A stretch of DNA of 64,000 nucleotides from Dictyostelium discoideum (Eukaryota), in contig CM000151.3 in assembly GCA_000004695.1 (NCBI GenBank), forward strand, positions 5,152,001 to 5,216,000, in the 5' to 3' direction. How positions within the stretch are numbered: position 1 is the stretch's first letter; every line of letters begins with the position of its first letter. The translations under genes were made by a program, and so were the position numbers. Shown piece after piece: positions 9,132-59,204 of this stretch. The notes below the pieces were generated by a model, which did no database searches, was not told the DNA's origin, and saw nothing but the letters and a program-made list of their open reading frames with translations.

Positions 9132-10094
9132 ATGCGTGTTCTTGTTATATTTATACCAAAATCATTCCCTAATAAATGTTTACACTTCAAAAAACTTGGG
9201 TAAGTATTTTTACTAAAAATAGTTGATTATCAAAAGTTAGTAAACAATTTTCTAATAAATTTTTTAATTTTTTAATTTTTTAAAAAAAATATTTCAGATT
9301 ATGGATAATTTTCCAAGCTTCAATAAAAGAAAAATCAAATCACCAAAAGTAAGTATTTAAAATTTTTAATTTATTATTTTTTAATTTTTTTTTTTTTTTT
9401 TTATTGACAATTTTTTATTTTTTTTTTTATTTTTTATTTTTTTATTTATTAGGGAAATCCTTACTGAACAACAACAACAACAAATAATAAATAACCATAT
9501 AAATAATTCAATTTCAAGTGAAAATCTTGTAATTCCATTAAATAATTATGAAGAAAGTCCAACCCAATCCAATATATCATCATGTTATTCATCACAATCT
9601 AATTTATCAAGCTATAGTAGCACTGGAAGTTTAAGTAGTTATTATGGTTCAAACTATTATCATGGTGCAAGTTCAAGTAGTATTAGTAGTATCAATAGTA
9701 ATATTGCAAATTCAAATTCAAGTAGTACTGGTAGAGATTCAACACCAACACCAACACCAACACCAATTCAAACTCCTTCATCAACTCCATCTAAAAAGAA
9801 AAGATCATGGAGAATTAGAACACCATCACCAAAGCCAAAATTGGAATCAAACAACAATCATCATCATAATCATCATAATTATTACAATAATTTCTCTGAA
9901 ATTTCAATTGAACTACCACCAACCCCAACATATCCACAAAAACCATCATTCTTATCAAATTCAAATCAAATTCCAAGACCAAAATCAAGACATTCTCATA
10001 CAAATTCTGCTGATAGTTATACTTCATCATATTCATCAACTTATCCATCTTCAACAAGATCTTCTCAAAAACAACCACCATATTATCAACAACC

Positions 10095-10128
<34 letters not shown>

Positions 10129-10152
10129 ATTAATAATTTCAATTTTAATGGA

Positions 10153-10242
<90 letters not shown>

Positions 10243-10962
10243 TCCAATAATATGAAAATTTCAACATCACCAAATAAACTATCAAATTCAAATCATTCAA
10301 CAAATTCAAACTTTTCACAATGTTCATCAAGTCATAGTTTATTAGATACCAATATTGGTGGTATCAATGTAAATACTCAAAATTTGGTTTCATTTACAAA
10401 TGAAACTTCAAACTCTGGTTCAACTATTATAAAGCCTGTTGCACTTAAATCTAGTAGCAGAAGCGTATTTAATAGTAGTAATAATCAACAATATCTTTTC
10501 TCTTCTTCGACTTTATCTTCATCTTCTTCGACTAAAACTAATAATAATTCAACAACAACCACCACTACCACCACCGCCAAAACATCATCAACTTCAACAA
10601 ATGATTACTCATCTATTAAAGGTAAAAGTTTAATAGATGATGATGCATCCTGCTCGATTTCTTCATTTAATGCAATTGAACAACAAGTTCTAATTCCAAC
10701 GGTCCTATCATCATCCTCTTCATCTCATGTTATGAAAAGAAGTAATGGTAGTTCAAATGGTGGTAACTCCACCATACAATCACCATCTTGTAATCAAATA
10801 TCGATCAATAAGAATAACTTGGTAGATATCGATGATGAGGATGAGGATGATGAGGACGATATCAATGGCCATTGGGAAAAAATTACAATACCATCTAATA
10901 TGTGTAGAGATCAAATCTCAATTAAAAATAATTTTGATGAATCGACAAAAGTAATTTGCTAA
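9132..10962 (+). CDS. low-complexity Ser/Asn/Thr-rich protein (unknown function)
   Basis: Proposed exons: 9132..9199, 9298..9348 and 9453..10962. The donors are GTAAGT at 9200 and 9349, the acceptors are ...TTTCAG and ...TTATTAG, and the phases are consistent (2+1, 2+1). Exon 3 is a long ORF with poly-N (AAT)n, S/T tracts and an acidic DIDDEDEDDEDD tail. The 5' exon assignment is the uncertain part. The ORF-track entry 9644..10255 is a wrong-frame artefact. Confidence 0.45.
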
Positions 10963-11251
10963 TATACTTTATTTTAAAAAATATAAAAAGAAAAAAAAAA
11001 AAATAAAAATTTTAAAAAAAAATATATTTATTTTAAAAAACAATTATATAAACACATATGTGTTTAAAAAATTAATTAATTTTTTTTATTTTACAAATAA
11101 TTAAATTTATTTATATTTTTATTTATATTTTTTTGGTGTGTTAATATTTTATTTTATTTTATTTTTTTATTTTTTTATTTTTTGTACATTCAATTCTTTT
11201 TTTTATTTTATAAGTTCAAACAGAGTTTATCTCTTATTATAAAAAAAAAAA

Positions 11252-12865
11252 ATGAACATTTCAAATGATAAAAATATTTCAAAATTAAATATTAAAAATA
11301 ATAATGGATTTGGTAAAAGTTCTAATATTTTTGATATGGTTGCAGGAACTCCAAATAATATTTTTGATCCATATGATATTTGTTATGGAGAAAAAAGAAG
11401 TAATCAAGATATAAATGATTCAATGATATCATTAATGTAAGTTTTATTTATATATTTATTTTTTTTTTTTTTTTTAAATCTAATTTTTTAATATTTTTTA
11501 TTTTTTTTCAAAAAAAAAAAGAAATAATATTTCAAATTTATATCCATTAATAATTGGATTTTTTACAGTTTTCTTTGAAAAACCAATAAACTCAACAATT
11601 GATTCTGAAAAATTAAAAATAATAATTGAAAAAATGTTAAAATCTGACAATTCAACACAAGAGAAATCATTAAAAACAACAAATCAATGGATAAATTCAT
11701 GTGTAGAATTAATGATGAAAATTTATGAAAATTCAAATGATTTAAAAAAACTATTATTTGAAAAAAAAGATAAACTTTTAAATTCAAATTATAAAAAACA
11801 TGAATTTGGAGAAACAAGACATATTCTAGAAACAAATATAGAGAAATTAGAAAAATCAATTCAAGATCTTTTAATACTTTTATCAAATTCTTTAGAAAAT
11901 ATTCATGAAAATATTAATATTTATTTTGAATCAATTTTAATTTATATTGCTTTTATTCATAATGTTGATGTAATTATTAAAAATAATTGAAAAAAATTAA
12001 GAATAAATATTAAATAAATAAATACTAACATATACACATGTAATTTTTTAAAATTTAGTTGTTATGGGAAGTTTATGATATTGAACCAATTTTAATAACT
12101 GGTGCTAAAAAATCTGATAGATTAAGTGATGAAAATGTTTCATCGTTTAGAGAAAGATTACATGTTTTCATTTCATCATTTTTAAAAGATGTTGGTAGAA
12201 CATCAGAGAAAACAATGTTAAATCCATGTTGGAATGATATGTATAAAGTTTTATGTGAAGATTTAATTTTATATCCACAGAAATTAATAATATTCAATGA
12301 ATTAATTACTAATACTGATAGAACCACCGGTTTAAAACAATTCAATTTACCAGAAATTAATAATCAAAATTATATTTTCAGATTTGATGCAAAATATGTT
12401 GGTACTGATAATGAAAATAATAAATTAAAAGAATATATTACAAATTGTTATGGTATGTCATTCTATGGTAGTGGTATTGGTAGTGGTGGTGGTGGTGGTG
12501 ATAGTGGTAGTAGTAAATTATCATTCATATTAGAATCAAAAACCAAGAAATTCATATCCATTAGATTATATGGTATGAAAAATGAAAACATTGAAAATAT
12601 AAATATTAATATTTTCAATTGTGATGATAATAAACCACAACAATTGTTGGTTGATCAAGATACTATCAAACCTTTAACATTACAATTATCAAATTATTTA
12701 CCTTCAAATAATAATTTAAACTCAAATTTCGTTGGTTTCACAAATACAAAAAAAATTAAATTAAACAATGTTAAAAATTTAATTGAATTTAATTTTAATG
12801 GAAATGAAAATAAAAAATATTTCTTATACTTTATTGAAATTTTAGTAAGTTATCAAAAACAATAA
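11252..12865 (+). CDS. hypothetical protein (no recognisable domain)
   Basis: Phase-consistent model: exons 11252..11312 (donor GTAAAA, carry 1), 11569..11969 (acceptor TTTTACAG; donor GTAATT after ...HNVD) and 12059..12865 (acceptor AAATTTAG). The ORF-track ORFs 11252..11440 and 11634..11990 read through donors into intron. The product contains a Gly-rich segment GSGIGSGGGGGDSGS. Confidence 0.45.
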
Positions 12866-46094: not shown

Positions 46095-48377
<2,283 letters not shown>

Positions 48378-51375: not shown

Positions 51376-51939
51376 TTAGTTGTCAAGTAATTCACTAATA
51401 CGTTTCATAAACATATAGTATTTCTTCAAAGTTCTTTGAAAAGTTCTACTTGGATGGATTTTACCAAAAATGTGATCTTGAGGTTCAAGCAAATCTCCAG
51501 TTGAGTAAACACTTTTGATGTAGTTTGACAAACCATTTAATCTTTTTCTGCTGATTTCATATTCTTCACCATTGACATCAATTGTGAGTAATGAAGATGC
51601 ACCATTATACACCAAATGTGGAACGGCACTAACACCCTTTTCAATGCAATTGTCAATAAAGAGTTGAGAAAGTTCACTTTTATCCTCATTGATATGAAAT
51701 GAGGTTGTAAAAATATTACCCTCTCCATTGAACAAATCTCTTAATTGTAAACCTTCTTCAACGGTACATTTTTTAAATGCCATATTGTGAGCTTCTTTTA
51801 CAATTTTTAATTCATAAAAATGTTCTTTTACATCACCCTTGAGATGAATAACATCTTCTTCTTTGATATGATGCTTTCTTAAACTTTTACTATTTAAAAT
51901 AATAGTGTGTAAATCATATTTTTGATTTCTGTTTAACAT
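51376..51939 (-). CDS. hypothetical globular protein (187 aa), function not recognised
   Basis: Clean single ORF MLNRNQKYDLHTIILNSKSLRKHHIKEEDVIHLKGDVKEHFYELKIV...KRISELLDN* with non-repetitive composition. No motif was assigned. Confidence 0.45.
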   Translation of the reverse strand: MLNRNQKYDLHTIILNSKSLRKHHIKEEDVIHLKGDVKEHFYELKIVKEAHNMAFKKCTVEEGLQLRDLFNGEGNIFTTSFHINEDKSELSQLFIDNCIEKGVSAVPHLVYNGASSLLTIDVNGEEYEISRKRLNGLSNYIKSVYSTGDLLEPQDHIFGKIHPSRTFQRTLKKYYMFMKRISELLDN

Positions 51940-52830: not shown

Positions 52831-54231
52831 ATGACAAGTAAAATAAAATCAAGTAATACACTTTTAACATTTGATGCAAATGAAGTGACCAATATTAAAT
52901 TAGTTTGGGATATTGAAGAATTAAAGAATAAGGATAAAGAAGATAAAGCACATATAAAAGATGAAGAAGAAGATGAAGATGGACCAGTATCATTTCATCC
53001 ATCATTTTCTCATCAAATATTTAATGATGAACAAGTTCAAGGATATGAAGCTTGTAAAATTGATATTTATATGGGAGCAGGTTCATTAACATCATATATT
53101 GATACAAATTATACTTTACAATCTAAAAATTTAACAAATGTTGAAGGTGAATTATTAAAAGTTTTTTCAAAACAAGACCCACCAATTTCAAAACAATCAT
53201 TTTATAAATTCATTGAAGAAAAAGAAAAATCATTTAAACCAATTGGTAAAAAGATACATGAATATACAATTACAGATAAAGAGAGTGGTGAAGAAACAGA
53301 GTATGAAGTTTATTTTGGCAGAATAACAGATCAAGCAGTATTTAGATACCATGAGAAACTTCAAATATTTGTATTATGGTATATCGATGGTTCTTCCTAT
53401 ATTTGGACAGATGATCCAAATTGGGATATATTTTTCATTTTTGAAAAGAGAATTATAGATGGTGAAAAGAGATATGGCATTACAGGTTATTCAACAATTT
53501 ATAATTTTTATCATCATCCAGAACAAACTAGAGCTAGAATTAGTCAATATTTAATTTTACCACCATACCAAAGAATGGGTCATGGTAAATATTTATTTAA
53601 TTCAATCCATCAATATTATAAAACCAATGATGGATTCTACGGACCAGTTTACGATGTCACCATTGAAGATCCAGCAGATGATTTTAATTTATTAAGAAAC
53701 TATGTCGATTTAAAGAATATTATCGATGAGAAATTATTTGATAATGTTATACTAGATTTAAATGCAAATAATAAATCAGTATTTGAAGAAATTAGAAAGA
53801 AATTATTAGTTCCCCATAAACAGTCAAAAGTTTGTTTAGAAATTTATTTATTTAGTAAATTTTTAGCAACACCAAATTCAAATCCAAAATATAAAGAATT
53901 TAGAATTGCAATTAAAAAGAGACTTTATAAACAAAATATTGGTGATTCTGAACAAATTGAAAAAATGAAACAACAAGTTGCGCAAGAGAATGAAGATAAT
54001 TTACGTCTTGAACAAGAGGAGTTACAGGAGTTACAAGATATTGAAAATAAAAAAAATGGTACAAATATTAAAGTCGCAATCAATACTAAAGAATTAACAA
54101 CACCTTCTGAACCTGAAAAAAGTAAAGAAGAAATTGAAAAAGATAGATTAGAAGAAATTATTCAACTTTATAAAGACTTGGAAGAAAATTATCATAAAAC
54201 TTTATCATCTTTAAATTTAATTACAAAATAA
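52831..54231 (+). CDS. histone acetyltransferase type B catalytic subunit (HAT1)
   Basis: 466-codon single ORF.
- N-terminal HAT1 region: ...FHPSFSHQIFNDEQVQGYEACKIDIYMGAGSLTSYID.
- Acetyl-CoA motif: QYLILPPYQRMGHGKYLFNSIHQYY.
- Conserved tail: GPVYDVTIEDPADDFNLLRNYVD. Confidence 0.8.
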   Translation: MTSKIKSSNTLLTFDANEVTNIKLVWDIEELKNKDKEDKAHIKDEEEDEDGPVSFHPSFSHQIFNDEQVQGYEACKIDIYMGAGSLTSYIDTNYTLQSKNLTNVEGELLKVFSKQDPPISKQSFYKFIEEKEKSFKPIGKKIHEYTITDKESGEETEYEVYFGRITDQAVFRYHEKLQIFVLWYIDGSSYIWTDDPNWDIFFIFEKRIIDGEKRYGITGYSTIYNFYHHPEQTRARISQYLILPPYQRMGHGKYLFNSIHQYYKTNDGFYGPVYDVTIEDPADDFNLLRNYVDLKNIIDEKLFDNVILDLNANNKSVFEEIRKKLLVPHKQSKVCLEIYLFSKFLATPNSNPKYKEFRIAIKKRLYKQNIGDSEQIEKMKQQVAQENEDNLRLEQEELQELQDIENKKNGTNIKVAINTKELTTPSEPEKSKEEIEKDRLEEIIQLYKDLEENYHKTLSSLNLITK

Positions 54232-54471
54232 ATTTCAAAGTATATTTAATTAAAAAAAAAAAATTAAAAAAATAAAATAAAATATAAGAAATCAATAAAT
54301 AACTTAATAAATTATATTAAATTAAATGAAATGAATTTTTATTTATTTATTTATTTAATTAATTTATTTAATTATTTTAACTATTTATTTATTTATTTAT
54401 TTACAAATAATTATTTCATTTTGAAGATGAAAAATCATTGATTGTGATGATGATTTACCATTCTCGAAAGA

Positions 54472-57400
54472 TTAAGAGGAGAATGCGGAACTTTGTGCAG
54501 AGTTTGAATTTTTACTACCTGAGGAAGAAGATGAATCGTCATTTTCACTTGATTTTGATTGAGAATTACCACTCGATGATGACGAAGATTCAAAAGCAGA
54601 GCTTTGTTCTGATAAAGACGATGATTCACTTGACTCACTACTTTGATTCATTGATCCACTATTTGAAACTTGATCTTTGGATTCAGTTTCTGAACTTTGA
54701 TGACTGTTTGATTCACTTTCTTCTTTATGTGATGATTCATTGTTTGAATTTTGGTTGTTAGATTCGTTATTTGATGATTCATTATTTGAACCCTGGCTGC
54801 TTGATTCATTATTTGACGATTCATTATTTGAACCCTTGCTGCTAGATTCATTATTTGATGATTCATTGTTTGAATTTTGGTTGCTTGATTCATTGTTGGA
54901 TGATTCATTATTTGAACCTTGGCTACTTGATTCATTGTTTGAACCATGGCTACTTGATTCATTGTTTGAACCTTTGCTGCTTGATTCATTGTTTGAGCCA
55001 TGGCTACTTGATTCATTGTTTGAACCTTGGTTACTTGATTCATTATTTGATGATCCATTATTTGAACTTTGGCTACTTGATTCATTATTCGATGATTCAT
55101 TATTTGATGATTCATTGTTTGAACCTTGGCTACTTGATTCGTTATTCGATGATTCATTATTTGATTCATTATTTGATGATTCATTATTTGAACCTTGGTT
55201 GCTTGATTCATTATTTGAAGATTCATTATTTGAACCTTTACTACTTGATTCATTATTTGATGATTCATTATTTGATGATTCATTATTTGATGATTCATTA
55301 TTTGAACTTTGGTTGCTTGGCTCATTATGTGATGATTCATTGTTTGAACCTTGGCTACTTGATTCATTATTTGATGATTCATTGTTTGAACCTTGGTTGC
55401 TTGATTCATTATTTGAACCTTGGCTACTTGATTCATTATTTGATGATCCATTGTTTGAACTATAGTTGCTTGAATCTTGACTACTTGATTCATTATTTGA
55501 TGATTCATTATTTGAACCATGGCTACTTGATTCATTATTTGATGATTCACTGTTTGAACCATGACTGCTTGAGTCGTTGTTAGATTCGCTGTTCAAACTT
55601 TGATTGCTAGATTCATTGCTTGACTCACTATTTGAACCTTGACTTGGTTCATTGTTATATTCACTGTTCAAACTTTGGTTGCTAGATTCATTATTTGATG
55701 ATTCGCTATGTGATGATTCATTGTTTGAACCTTGGTTACTTGATTCATTATTTGATGACTCATTGTTTGATGATAGATTGTTTGAACTTTGATTGCTTGA
55801 CTCATTATTTGATGGCTCATTGTTTGAATTTTGGTTGTTAGAATCGTTATTTGATGATTCATTGTTTGAACCTTGGCTACTTGATTCATTATGTGATGAT
55901 TCATTGTTTGAACCTTGGTTGCTTGATTCGTTGTGTGCTGATTCATTGTTTGAACCTTGGCTGCTTGATTCATTATGTGATGATTCATTGTTTGAACCTT
56001 GGTTGCTTGTTTCATTATGTGAAGATTCATTGTTTGAACCTTGGTTGCTAGATTCATTATTTGATGATTCATTGTTTGAACCTTGGTTGCTTGATTCATT
56101 ATGTGAAGATTCATTGTTTGAACCTTGGTTGCTTGATTCATTATTTGATGATTCATTGTTTGAACCTTGGTTGCTTGATTCATTATGTGATGATTCATTG
56201 TTTGAACCTTGGTTGCTTGATTCGTTGTGTGCTGATTCATTGTTTGAACCTTGGCTGCTTGATTCATTATGTGATGATTCATTATTTGAACCTTGGTTGC
56301 TTGTTTCATTATGTGAAGATTCATTGTTTGAACCTTGGTTGCTAGATTCGTTATTTGAAGATTCATTGTTTGAACCTTGGCTGCTTGATTCATTATTTGT
56401 TGAACTATGGTCATCACTAGATTCATTATTTGAATTTTGGATTTTTAAAGTTTCACTTGAGCTATCTTGTCCACTACTAGAACCTTGGTTACTTGAATGG
56501 TTGTTTGAATGGCTACCGGAGCCTTGGTTACTAGAATCATTTGTTGGATGATTGCCCGAGCTTTGATGATTAGAATCTTCATTTGATTGACTATTGTTAG
56601 ATTCACTGCTTGATGTTTGACCACTTGAACTTTCACTATTATGGCTTGATGATTCTTCTGTTGGTGATTGAATGGGTGGTTGAGTTGGTGGAGAAGTTGG
56701 TTTTTTGGTGAGGGGTGGAGAAGTTGGTTTTGGAGTTGGTTTGTTAAATGGATTTGGGTTATGAACGAAAACATCATTTTGTAAGGTCATAGGACATGCT
56801 AAAATTGAACTCATGACAATATTGAAATTACAATTGTCATCAGTAGAATTGACACTAATTGATGTATATTGTGAATCTTTACAAAGTAAGGTTATTGTAG
56901 TTGATTTTGGTTTACCTGTTCCTTGACACAAATTATTTGATGAGCTACTTGTAATCACAGCGCCATATTGATCATCACTATCTAATGGATTAATGGTAGC
57001 ACTACCATAGTCACCAATAGTACCAATTAAAGAATTATCAGGTTTAATGCATGCAGTTTGACGTGGACAACAAGCTGGTGATGAACAAATGTTCCAATTA
57101 ATTGTTAAACCTTTTAGTACACTAGTATAATATGGATCACTATTTTAAAAAATTAAAAAAATAAAAAAATTAATAAATAATTATTATTATTATTTATATT
57201 ATTAATATTACCTTTTAAATCCTGTAAAATCATAGTTTAAACCATTAAGATTTGGTTTACAATAATATTTTGGAGTTTTTGGTTGTGGTGGTTTGTTAGT
57301 TGGACAAGCTGCTGAACCACTCATTAAAATGTTAAAAGTACAGTCATCAATACGTTCAACTCTTTCAACAGTTGGAGTTGGTTTAGAGGAACATTTTAAA

Positions 57401-57670
57401 TTGATACGAGATTGAATAAATTGTTTACCTCCATTACACTTCATTGTTGAACTTGTACTTGTAATTCTGGCACCAAAAGATGAATTACCCAATGATTCAA
57501 AGCCAACTGAATCAATACTACCAATGCTTGATCCATTTCTAAAGCAAACACTACTATCAATACATTTTGTTGGTGCACCACATACATTCCAATTAATATC
57601 AATACCATCTTTACTATATGAATAAAATGGTACTCTATTTTTTTTTTTTTTTTTTTTAATTAGTAATATA

Positions 57671-57701
<31 letters not shown>

Positions 57702-58492
57702 TAAATAATGAATAGTTACTTTTTAAAATCATTAAAATCATAATTATTTCCATCTAATTCAATTTGACAAGGATATTTATTTGGAAGTGTTGAGGATGGA
57801 CAAGCTGAATTACCAGAAACAATTATATTCATTGAACACAATCCATCTTGAATTACTCTTTCAACTGCATCAGAACCATTTCTGTTACAAAGCATTGTTA
57901 TATTTGTACGTCTGAATTCACCATTTAAACATTTTTGTTTTGAAAAAGTAATTATTGAACCACCAACACCGCCATTTGGTAAAGAGACAAAAGTTGAATT
58001 ATTTAAGTCTCCTAAATTAATAGATGTTTTTCCATAATTTTTACAAACATTTGTTGAGTTTGGACATTTTGGTGATACAGAACAAATTGAAAAATATAAT
58101 GAATAAGGAGTTAAATCATATTGAAAAGGACTATTTTTTATTATTTTATAATTTGTTATTTATTATTTGGGTTGAACGAAAAAAAAAAAAAAAAAAAAAA
58201 AATTAATTTCCAAAAAAAAAAAAAAAAAAAAAAAAAAATTAAATAAAATAAAATAATTTTAGAAAAATTTGGTTAAGTAAATTTAAAAGAACAAAATTTA
58301 ATTAAAGCCAAAATTAGGATTTTTTTTTTTTTTTTACCCAAAAATAACTTACTCTTTGAACTTACTGAAATCATAATCCAAACCATTTAAAGTAGCTTTA
58401 CAATTATCTGGATTTGTTTGGCCATTTGAAATTTGAAAAACTCCCAATATTAAGAAAATTGGAAATAAAAGATTTATAAATTTCATTTTCAT
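54472..58492 (-). CDS. secreted protein with three tandem MRH-like (mannose-6-phosphate-receptor-homology-like) cysteine domains followed by an ~850-aa Ser/Asn/Glu mucin-like 9-residue tandem array
   Basis: Four exons on the minus strand: 58492..58353, 58130..57720, 57634..57212 and 57139..54472. The three introns sit at equivalent domain boundaries, all phase 2, with donors GTAAGT, GTAACT and GTAATA.
- Exon 1 is a signal peptide: MKMKFINLLFPIFLILGVFQISNG.
- The three ~120-140-aa domains begin CKATLNGLDYDFSKFK, CQIELDGNNYDFNDFK and CKPNLNGLNYDFTGFK.
- They contain ...INWN.C...CCP... and end ...DDCTFNILMSGSAACP / DNCNFNIVMSSILACP, which resembles the MRH/CIMR YDLS.L ... C.Y.F.W.T.ACP pattern.
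- The last exon continues into (SNNESSNQG)n.
- The 828-codon ORF-track entry is only this last exon. Confidence 0.6.
54700..56450. repeat. coding 27-bp tandem repeat array (~60 units; consensus TCATTATTTGAACCTTGGTTGCTTGAT on the plus strand, SNNESSNQG on the minus strand)
   Basis: Highly homogeneous 27-nt units with a few variant subtypes (SSHNE, SAHNE, SSSQG). The long ORFs on the plus strand (54740.., 54855.., 55793..) and the alternative minus-strand frames (54648.., 55668..) are frame artefacts of the repeat. Confidence 0.85.
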
Positions 58493-59165
58493 TATTATTT
58501 TCTTTTAAAATAATATTGTGAAAGTTTTATTTTTTTTTTTTTTTAATTTATTTAAAAAATAATTTTTAGAAATAATATAAGGTCCTTTTTATATTAAAAA
58601 AAAATTATAAAAAAATAATTTTTCATTATTTAAAAACAAATATATACATATAATTATTTAAATAATATAATAAATAATTTATTCTTAATTTTTATTTTGT
58701 TTTTTTTTTTTTTTTTTTTTTTTTTTTTGATAACATTTTTTTTTAATATTTGTAATAAATTATTTTTTTTACTTTTACTCCCATCCTCTAACAAAAAAAA
58801 AGAAAAAGAAATTTAAAGATACAACCTTCATATATTAGGGCCATATTTTAAATAAAAAATAAAAATAGAAAAATCATATCACTTTCTTTCATTGGAGTTT
58901 GTATAATAATATGAAATTTTATTTTATATTAAAAAATGTGTTTTTTTCAATTGTCACTGCATTCATTATGCATAATGGGGGTGGGGGTATTATAAAAAAG
59001 AAAAATATTAATTTACTCAATGATATTGGTGTGAGAACCTAAATATATTAATAATTTATTTTATTCAGAGATCTATCATGCACAAATAACAATACTATTC
59101 CAAAATTATACCTTCACATTTCCTTTTTAATATTAATAATATTTAATTTATTAATTTTTTATTAA

Positions 59166-59204
<39 letters not shown>

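Follow-up and report, generated by a model that had tools for sequence, protein, structure and literature searches.

In lectins with a domain homologous to mannose-6-phosphate receptors (MRH domain), mannose is held by a Gln, an Arg, a Glu and a Tyr residue, represented in GNPTG by Gln91, Arg134, Glu153 and Tyr159 (PMC9388126). MRH domains also occur in tandem in proteins in which this tetrad is largely missing: most of the 15 repeats of CI-MPR, the mannose-6-phosphate (Man-6-P)/IGF2 receptor, are without it, and Drosophila LERP and Trichomonas TvMPR have tandem MRH domains with conserved cysteines from which most Man-6-P-binding residues are absent (PMC8717582). In Dictyostelium discoideum, the N-glycans are abundantly methylphosphorylated and sulphated (PMC11795075), and the organism was reported to be without any detectable Man-6-P receptor (PMC2114169). 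As methylphosphomannose is made and Man-6-P receptors were reported to be lacking, any MRH protein of this organism is a reasonable candidate for such a receptor. Here, we describe a gene for a protein with three domains of this type, located on the minus strand (58492-54472) of a 64,000-nucleotide stretch of D. discoideum chromosome 2 (assembly GCA_000004695.1, contig CM000151.3, positions 5,152,001 to 5,216,000), hereafter referred to as the window.

An earlier note on this stretch of DNA had read the product as a multivalent glycan-binding mucin. The gene is genuine and selectively constrained, and its product, as judged by profile matches and the cysteine framework, is a member of the MRH superfamily, but most probably not a P-type lectin (by its tetrad residues), a sorting receptor (by its topology) or a mucin (by its composition). 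The gene adds a member, so far without annotation, to a domain family that is already known and does not represent a new kind of system; its architecture is unusual yet explicable.

Relationship of the cysteine-rich domains to the MRH superfamily

The N-terminal part of the protein comprises three cysteine-rich domains of 128-133 residues each, D1 (C31-P158), D2 (C168-P295) and D3 (C309-P441). In a full-length alignment eight cysteines per domain are in register, with one extra cysteine in D3, and the pairwise identity among the domains is 31-36%. BLASTP comparisons yielded E values of 7e-27 for D2 and D3, which are mutually nearest (36%), and of 2e-17 for D1 and D2, in agreement with the earlier proposal of three homologous domains. 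D1 is as close to P0033, a single-domain MRH protein of Heterostelium album, as it is to D2 or D3 (35% identity, E 3e-14). The sequence motifs that had been quoted for the domains are present, but their spacing had to be corrected: the head reads C-x3-L-[ND]-G instead of C-x4, and the end reads MS-x3-ACP instead of MS-x4-ACP. In addition, CCP and TITLLC are confined to D3, and INWN to D2 and D3.

Profile searches, as proposed in the earlier note, recovered the MRH relationship. When a profile of nothing but the three window domains was run against the PDB, CI-MPR chains were matched at E 2.5e-8, and no match to a non-MRH structure occurred below E 1; in the same search, the isolated domain 5 of CI-MPR (2kva) was found at E 5e-4 and aligned end to end, from the G-x-x-FDL strand to ACP. 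A second profile, composed of the three exon-internal domain bodies without the head strand, was searched against 1.84 billion cluster representatives and identified 64 proteins at E<=1e-3, the best at 1.7e-14. These proteins belong mostly to the MRH clan, and a Pfam scan of all 64 assigned CIMR to 37, PRKCSH_1 to 37, ATG27 to 31 and Man-6-P_recep to 20 of them. A family profile was then formed by the window domains and 21 relatives taken from this set. Run against the PDB, it matched MRH proteins only, with CI-MPR leading (2.4e-136), followed by GII-beta, ERLEC1, GNPTG, OS-9 and CD-MPR; the matches to OS-9 and ERLEC1 cover only the last ~50 residues. The eight cysteines of each window domain align with eight near-invariant cysteine columns of the relatives, in line with the framework of MRH domains, which have six to eight cysteines and 3-4 disulfides in ~120-150 residues. 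Homology of the three domains to the MRH/P-type-lectin superfamily is, by these profile matches, well supported.

In one protein collection, homologue searches with the 455-residue N-terminus and with the three-domain profile gave no match and those with the 24-sequence family profile two; an NCBIfam scan gave no match either. By exact sequence, the protein and its near-identical orthologues are also absent from this collection. The genome records examined list no Pfam family for the product and no paper on it was found, which is in line with the earlier note, in which the architecture was not recognised as that of a described dictyostelid protein.

Among described proteins, CI-MPR resembles the window protein in its tandem repeats of about 135 residues, the eight-cysteine pattern, the N-terminal G-x-x-[YF]-D-[LF] strand and the C-terminal C-x-[YF]-x-[FI]...ACP strand, and also in the repeats that are without the sugar-binding tetrad. 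However, the window protein has 3 repeats instead of 15, it lacks a transmembrane segment, a cytosolic sorting tail and any repeat with an intact tetrad, and it is fused to an acidic Ser/Asn/Glu tail of ~725 residues.

Sugar-binding residues and the question of lectin activity

The positions of the tetrad were mapped in three ways, by the family alignment, by hmmalign of 197 related domains and by pairwise alignment with P0033. They correspond to the residue after the fourth cysteine (Gln), the residue eight before the sixth cysteine (Arg), the residue 5-7 before the Tyr (Glu), and the residue two after the seventh cysteine (Tyr). With the numbering offset by the 44 residues of the signal peptide, the tetrad residues published for CI-MPR domain 5 fall on the same positions in the alignment with the window profile.

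At these positions, D1 reads K77-R120-Q-M147, D2 reads F215-I-R-F284 and D3 reads I356-K-T-F430, which leaves one of the four residues in D1 and none of the four in D2 and D3. The substitutions are unchanged in the orthologues described below. Among the 197 related domains, the full QREY set is present in 57 and the Tyr in 137. By their residues at these sites, D1-D3 belong to the class with a degenerate tetrad, as do most CI-MPR repeats and those of LERP and TvMPR, and canonical binding of mannose or Man-6-P by any of them appears unlikely. As the tetrad is absent from all three domains, a multivalent lectin, as claimed in the earlier note, is unsupported, and the missing tetrad also makes the gene a weak candidate for a phosphomannose receptor.

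A true multivalent lectin-mucin would require that the remodelled MRH sites bind N-glycans, possibly Dictyostelium-specific ones with an anionic group (methylphosphomannose, mannose sulphate or GlcNAc-1-P, for instance), and that the glycosylated tail leads to cross-linking. We consider this rather unlikely, even though the MRH homology that it presupposes is solid, and D1, with an Arg at C-8, Lys77 at the Gln position and an Asp at -5, could suit an anionic sugar. The methylphosphorylated and sulphated N-glycans (PMC11795075) of an organism reported to lack a detectable Man-6-P receptor (PMC2114169) would furthermore provide a ligand without a known reader, and among single PDB matches the best is that to CI-MPR domain 5, which, as indicated in the reference list of PMC7481795, prefers phosphodiesters. 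However, the tetrad counts of 1/4, 0/4 and 0/4, with Met, Phe and Phe at the Tyr position and Lys, Phe and Ile at the Gln position, argue against such an activity. As QREY is kept in related domains of other dictyostelid proteins, its loss is specific to the lineage of the window protein. In addition, the tail is not a mucin sequence of the Pro/Thr/Ser type.

A different group of dictyostelid proteins came up alongside. These type-I membrane proteins are ATG27/CD-MPR-like and contain a single MRH domain; they are found in a further genome (L008, GCA_000787575.2, 197-3087 (+)), where two such genes are adjacent, and as P0040 and P0060. P0058 has the full Gln/Arg/Glu/Tyr tetrad, and all three proteins possess a transmembrane segment and, at the C-terminus, a YQQ[IV] motif. 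The ATG27/CD-MPR-like proteins look like better candidates for a phosphomannose receptor than the gene under study.

The Ser/Asn/Glu-rich tail

The C-terminal part had been described as ~95 copies of a perfect 9-residue unit. Cutting the protein after [QHK]-G instead gave ~39 imperfect units, 23 of which have 14 residues and five have 9 residues, the others ranging from 12 to 24 residues. The dominant period identified by Tandem Repeats Finder is 42 nt (14 residues), with 66-76% match over the whole array, and the autocorrelation of the tail is 0.68 at lag 14 versus 0.51 at lag 9, with side peaks at 5 and 9. The units are composed of a 5-residue module, SNNES, present in 56 copies, and a 9-residue module, SNNESS[NS]QG. 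The array core holds a higher-order duplication of 294 nt (7 x 42; 55880-56350) with exact matches of 110 nt and 65 nt at offset 294, which indicates recent unequal crossing-over. Modules of 15, 27 and 42 nt keep the reading frame automatically, and in its behaviour the tail is a coding minisatellite.

Within the tail of ~725 residues, Ser accounts for 39%, Asn for 25% and Glu for 12%. Only 13 Thr occur in residues 456-1213 (1.7%) and only 4 Pro in residues 498-1213 (0.6%). As both are scarce, the tail is not a classical mucin sequence, contrary to its earlier description as mucin-like; the hinge of 31 residues preceding it (residues 457-487) is the sole Pro/Thr-rich stretch of the classical mucin type. 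Residues 498-1213 contain 100 acidic versus 8 basic residues, corresponding to a net charge of about -92, and 82 N-x-S/T sequons, of which 66 are NES. A specific enrichment of sequons was considered and rejected, since composition-preserving shuffles gave 76 +/- 6; the sequons are therefore a by-product of the composition.

To our knowledge, the SNNES and SNNESSNQG modules have not been described as sugar-acceptor motifs. In composition, the tail resembles the long Ser-rich acidic tracts of other Dictyostelium proteins of the secretory pathway, the spore coat protein SP96 and the GlcNAc-1-P-Ser lysosomal cysteine proteinases, with no homology being claimed. The tracts of these proteins carry O-linked or phospho-linked sugars. 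More generally, Ser-rich tracts of Dictyostelium secretory proteins can bear O-linked and phospho-linked sugars, as given in PMC11795075 with reference to its citations 19-21.

The array at 54648-56551 is stop-free in four of the six frames, and the shadow open reading frames (ORFs) of 240-300 residues in this region (for example 54648-55562 (-), 54740-55465 (+) and 55793-56551 (+)) are repeat artefacts, not genes.

Gene model, topology and conservation

Joining the four exons results in a coding sequence of 3642 nt with no internal stop and a product of 1213 residues. The four-exon model with phase-2 introns at 58352/58131, 57719/57635 and 57211/57140, as given in the earlier note, proved to be exact (Table 1). 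The introns of 222, 85 and 72 nt are all of the GT..AG type, starting with GTAA and ending with TAG, have an A+T content of 88-97%, and each splits a codon after the second base.

Table 1. Position of the gene's elements within the window, listed in the direction of transcription.
Feature	Position	Strand	Description
Exon 1	58353..58492	-	start codon, signal peptide and head strand of domain 1 (C31..YDFSKFK); phase-2 end
Signal peptide	58492-58421	-	residues 1-24, within exon 1
Second in-frame ATG	58486	-	start used by the independent L001 gene call
Intron 1	58131..58352	-	222 nt, GTAAGT..ATAG, 88% A+T, phase 2
Exon 2	57720..58130	-	411 nt, phase 2-2; body of domain 1 (to P158, 57797), linker, head of domain 2 (C168, 57769)
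Intron 2	57635..57719	-	85 nt, GTAACT..ATAG, 94% A+T, phase 2
Exon 3	57212..57634	-	423 nt, phase 2-2; body of domain 2 (to P295, 57301), Pro/Lys linker, head of domain 3 (C309, 57261)
Intron 3	57140..57211	-	72 nt, GTAATA..ATAG, 97% A+T, phase 2, in-frame stops
Exon 4 (whole)	57139-54472	-	body of domain 3, hinge, tail, stop
Exon 4 start	56791..57139	-	body of domain 3 (to P441); same ORF as hinge and tail
Hinge	56653..56745	-	Pro/Thr/Lys-rich, NKPTPKPTSPPLTKKPTSPPTQPPIQSPTEE, residues 457-487, 31 residues
Tail	54475..56652	-	Ser/Asn/Glu-rich, low complexity, residues 488-1213, ~39 imperfect units, mostly of 14 residues
Most regular core of the array	55756..56403	-	15.4 copies of 42 nt, 89% match; holds the 294-nt higher-order duplication
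Stop codon TAA	54472..54474	-	240 nt from the 3' end of the neighbouring gene HAT1 (convergent)

Residues 1-24 represent the sole hydrophobic 19-residue stretch of the protein (Kyte-Doolittle 1.98), and small residues precede the cut between ...ISNG and Q, which is a plausible cleavage context and agrees with the signal peptide assigned earlier. No transmembrane segment, GPI-like tail or HDEL/KDEL sequence is present in the protein, which ends in ...NSAQSSAFSS. From the signal peptide together with the absence of these anchoring and retention features, we infer that the protein is soluble, enters the secretory pathway and is neither anchored nor retained in the endoplasmic reticulum (ER), and that it is secreted. 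It shares with LERP and TvMPR the combination of several MRH domains with missing Man-6-P-binding residues; however, both span the membrane as type-I receptors and bear YxxPhi or DxxLL sorting motifs, whereas the window protein is predicted to be soluble.

Solubility and tandem MRH domains would also suit a luminal quality-control or sorting factor of the ER or Golgi, similar to XTP3-B/ERLEC1 or OS-9, which are luminal, soluble and equipped with one or two MRH domains, and the tail would then be an incidental low-complexity expansion. ERLEC1 and OS-9, both as weak matches, and GII-beta are indeed among the PDB matches of the family profile, but the similarity of XTP3-B/ERLEC1 and OS-9 to the window domains is confined to the C-terminal third of the domain, and it is not these two but the small secreted proteins of dictyostelids and repeats of the CI-MPR type that are nearest to the window protein. 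In XTP3-B/ERLEC1 and OS-9, which function in the ER, one domain or more retains the tetrad, whereas in the window protein the tetrad is gone from every domain and the C-terminus ...AFSS is not of the HDEL/KDEL type. As the gene was in addition not found at the syntenic site of D. citrinum (see below), which would be unexpected for a core component of ER-associated degradation, we regard a function of this kind as clearly unlikely.

At the corresponding locus, three other genomes of the D. discoideum complex have gene calls made independently, with products of 1211 residues (L001), 1215 residues (L004) and 1374 residues (L003, D. cf. discoideum). The DNA of L001 is 99.9% identical to the window, and the gene call starts at the second ATG. 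In L003 and L004, one unique set of three GT..AG introns gives the annotated length, with positions and phase as in the window. Intron 1, whose position is the same as in the window, measures 219 nt in L001, 159 nt in L003 and 222 nt in L004; for intron 2 (85 nt in the window) the values are 69 nt (L003) and 93 nt (L004), and for intron 3 (72 nt in the window) 141 nt (L003) and 78 nt (L004). Since intron lengths, such as those of intron 2, differ by non-multiples of three while the exon frames are kept, the introns are real and spliced out. The difference of 3 nt in intron 1 between the window (222 nt) and L001 (219 nt) is probably located in a poly-T/poly-A run.

Over the three domains, the ratio of nonsynonymous to synonymous substitution rates (dN/dS) is 0.26 against both L003 and L004, the value for L003 being that of the aligned sequences, as a one-codon deletion pushes the ungapped figure to 0.57. 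All cysteines (25/25) are conserved in the orthologues. From residue 456 onwards, the tail comprises 758, 760 and 919 residues in the three genomes, and the order of units is rearranged; despite these differences, the last ~20 residues and the position of the stop are conserved among them.

These data bear on the possibility that the locus is not one functional gene but a pseudogene, a mis-joined model, or a set of cysteine-rich exons and a repeat ORF that are separate units. The repeat is open in four of the six frames, which makes an ORF at this place weak evidence when taken alone. However, domain 3 spans exons 3 and 4; exon 3 encodes its head and exon 4 its body, which shares a single ORF with the tail, and the cysteine-rich and the repeat parts therefore form one product. 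The dN/dS of 0.26 with full conservation of the cysteines, the intron lengths that vary by non-multiples of three around kept exon frames, and the conserved C-terminal residues and stop position all argue in the same direction, and we consider it extremely unlikely that this is not a single functional gene.

Intron positions and origin of the triple domain

The introns had been placed at the domain boundaries. Instead, each intron is located 16 residues inside its domain, following the C-x3-L-[ND]-G-x-[ND]-YDF-x2-FK head strand, and the domain boundaries (ACP...linker...C) are found midway along exons 2 and 3. Exons 2 and 3 (411 and 423 nt) are symmetric (phase 2-2) and multiples of three, and each encodes the body of one domain, the linker and the head of the following domain. 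A phase-2 intron occurs at the identical alignment column in P0026, a single-domain relative from genome L005, and two codons away in the likewise single-domain P0033. Since this phase-2 intron is shared with single-domain relatives, it is older than the triplication, and from these alignments its position appears to be ancestral to the family. Tandem duplication of a symmetric exon (phase 2-2) is the likely origin of the triple domain. The earlier interpretation of the equivalent phase-2 introns as a signature of exon duplication thus stands with regard to the duplication, but not with regard to the boundary placement, and the intron itself predates the triplication.

The closest relatives of D1 are the small secreted dictyostelid MRH proteins, P0033 and the cluster of the P0026 type. 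They share with the window protein a signal peptide followed by an MRH domain and a low-complexity Ser/Thr tail, the absence of a membrane anchor and the phase-2 intron after the head strand. P0033 is a protein of 225 residues consisting of a signal peptide, one MRH domain with Gln, Arg and Tyr kept, and a Ser/Thr/Gly tail of 60 residues, and this layout is a plausible image of the ancestor. In contrast to such a single domain with a 60-residue tail, the domains of the window protein are three in number and degenerate, and its tail is more than 10 times longer; P0033 moreover keeps Gln, Arg and Tyr and passes Pfam PRKCSH_1.

In L005 (GCA_000277445.1, 98-3569 (+)), a tandem cluster of four genes encodes secreted single-domain MRH-like proteins of 163-166 residues with no Pfam family on record; the proteins of this cluster are the top scorers of the 64 against the full-domain profile. 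Another protein, P0031 (731 residues), has an N-terminal MRH domain fused to a TH1 (NELF-C/D-like) domain and is probably a merged gene model.

Favoured explanation and points against it

With moderate confidence, we favour the explanation that the gene encodes a secreted or luminal glycoprotein of the matrix type with a non-canonical MRH head and an acidic tail. Its ancestor would have been a secreted single-domain MRH protein with a Ser/Thr tail, as still found in other dictyostelids. The three modules, predicted to be disulfide-locked and of the MRH fold, probably constitute a stable head that binds a protein or some atypical ligand or serves as a scaffold for it, as most CI-MPR repeats and the repeats of LERP and TvMPR do, most likely without canonical binding of mannose or Man-6-P. 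The tail would evolve by unequal crossing-over among modules of 15, 27 and 42 nt and, together with the hinge, probably acts as an extended and hydrated spacer or brush, the tail being polyanionic, presumably disordered and probably heavily glycosylated. Together, head, hinge and tail would make up the matrix-type glycoprotein.

Several observations weigh against this explanation. In a Pfam scan of the whole N-terminus, the scores were 22.4 bits for PRKCSH_1, which has a cut-off of 23, and 21.0 bits for CIMR, which has one of 22.5, with lower scores for single domains, and the curated gathering scores of both families were missed by less than 2 bits; these near misses probably explain why the gene is unannotated. 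The MRH fold is a nine-stranded flattened beta-barrel. AlphaFold2 models of low confidence, with a predicted local distance difference test (pLDDT) score of 40 and 44.5, were obtained with domain bodies without the first strand and 3-5 alignment rows as input; both were all-beta, with 6 and 9 strands and no helix. A Foldseek search with the better model (pLDDT 44.5) returned MRH domains as the top five matches, yet at non-significant E values of 0.5-2. The Arg retained in D1 and its Asp at -5 are compatible with an altered sugar site. Long Ser/Asn-rich tracts are common in Dictyostelium proteins, and the tail may have little specific function. Finally, no orthologue was found adjoining the HAT1 gene in D. 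citrinum, as judged by synteny and by tblastn within 10 kb in the assemblies L002 and L007, and the gene may therefore be restricted to the D. discoideum complex.

At this site of D. citrinum, either synteny is broken or the gene with three MRH domains is absent. In both assemblies (~10001-11700), the HAT1 gene has an intron and is flanked by a gene for a C2-domain protein upstream and a Kelch-like gene downstream.

In a more far-reaching model, the protein would be soluble and read, with three sites, anionic glycans specific to Dictyostelium (methylphosphomannose, mannose sulphate or GlcNAc-1-P-Ser), with a pocket remodelled by Lys/Arg in place of Gln/Tyr. The acidic tail with its 82 sequons would serve as ligand in trans, giving rise to a self-crosslinked gel, luminal or extracellular, in which lysosomal enzymes are retained or packaged. 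We regard this as very unlikely and mention it as a speculation; if true, the protein would qualify as a candidate for the phosphomannose recognition long missing from an organism that was reported to be without a detectable Man-6-P receptor.

Genomic neighbourhood

The gene converges on the HAT1 gene, with 240 nt between both stop codons. The ORF at 52831-54231 (+) is identical to D. discoideum AX4 DDB_G0275159, a HAT1-type histone acetyltransferase, and the ORF at 51376-51939 (-), which encodes 187 residues and is located beyond HAT1 on the other side, corresponds to DDB_G0275161. Solely by the numbering of these two neighbours, the locus tag of the gene under study is probably DDB_G0275157. 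The gap of 240 nt to the 3' end of HAT1 leaves no space for an additional exon past the stop. A literature search identified no paper naming DDB_G0275157, and among six neighbouring locus tags only DDB_G0275161 was found to be mentioned. The MRH gene of a paper on huntingtin suppressors (PMC12954983) was considered as the same gene and rejected, as it is DDB_G0283243 on chromosome 4.

Within the 240-nt gap, a (TTTA)n microsatellite of ~16 copies is present at 54338-54403. Long poly-T/poly-A runs, each of 25-35 nt and as is typical for the non-coding DNA of Dictyostelium, occur at 58180-58250 (intron 1) and, upstream of the gene, at 58700-58760 and 59165-59200. A further ORF at 46095-48377 (+) consists of a single exon and encodes 760 residues; the corresponding gene call in L001 is without a Pfam family, and the exact sequence is absent from the protein collection searched.

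Significance

With this analysis, a hypothetical protein of D. discoideum, listed without Pfam annotation in the genome records examined, can be placed in a fold family. The locus is a clean case of tandem duplication of a symmetric exon, in which the exon edges are offset from the domain edges, and its tail is a coding minisatellite that differs in length between close strains. With regard to the family, dictyostelids hold a small group of secreted MRH proteins with low-complexity tails, beside the ATG27/CD-MPR-like membrane proteins that keep the tetrad.

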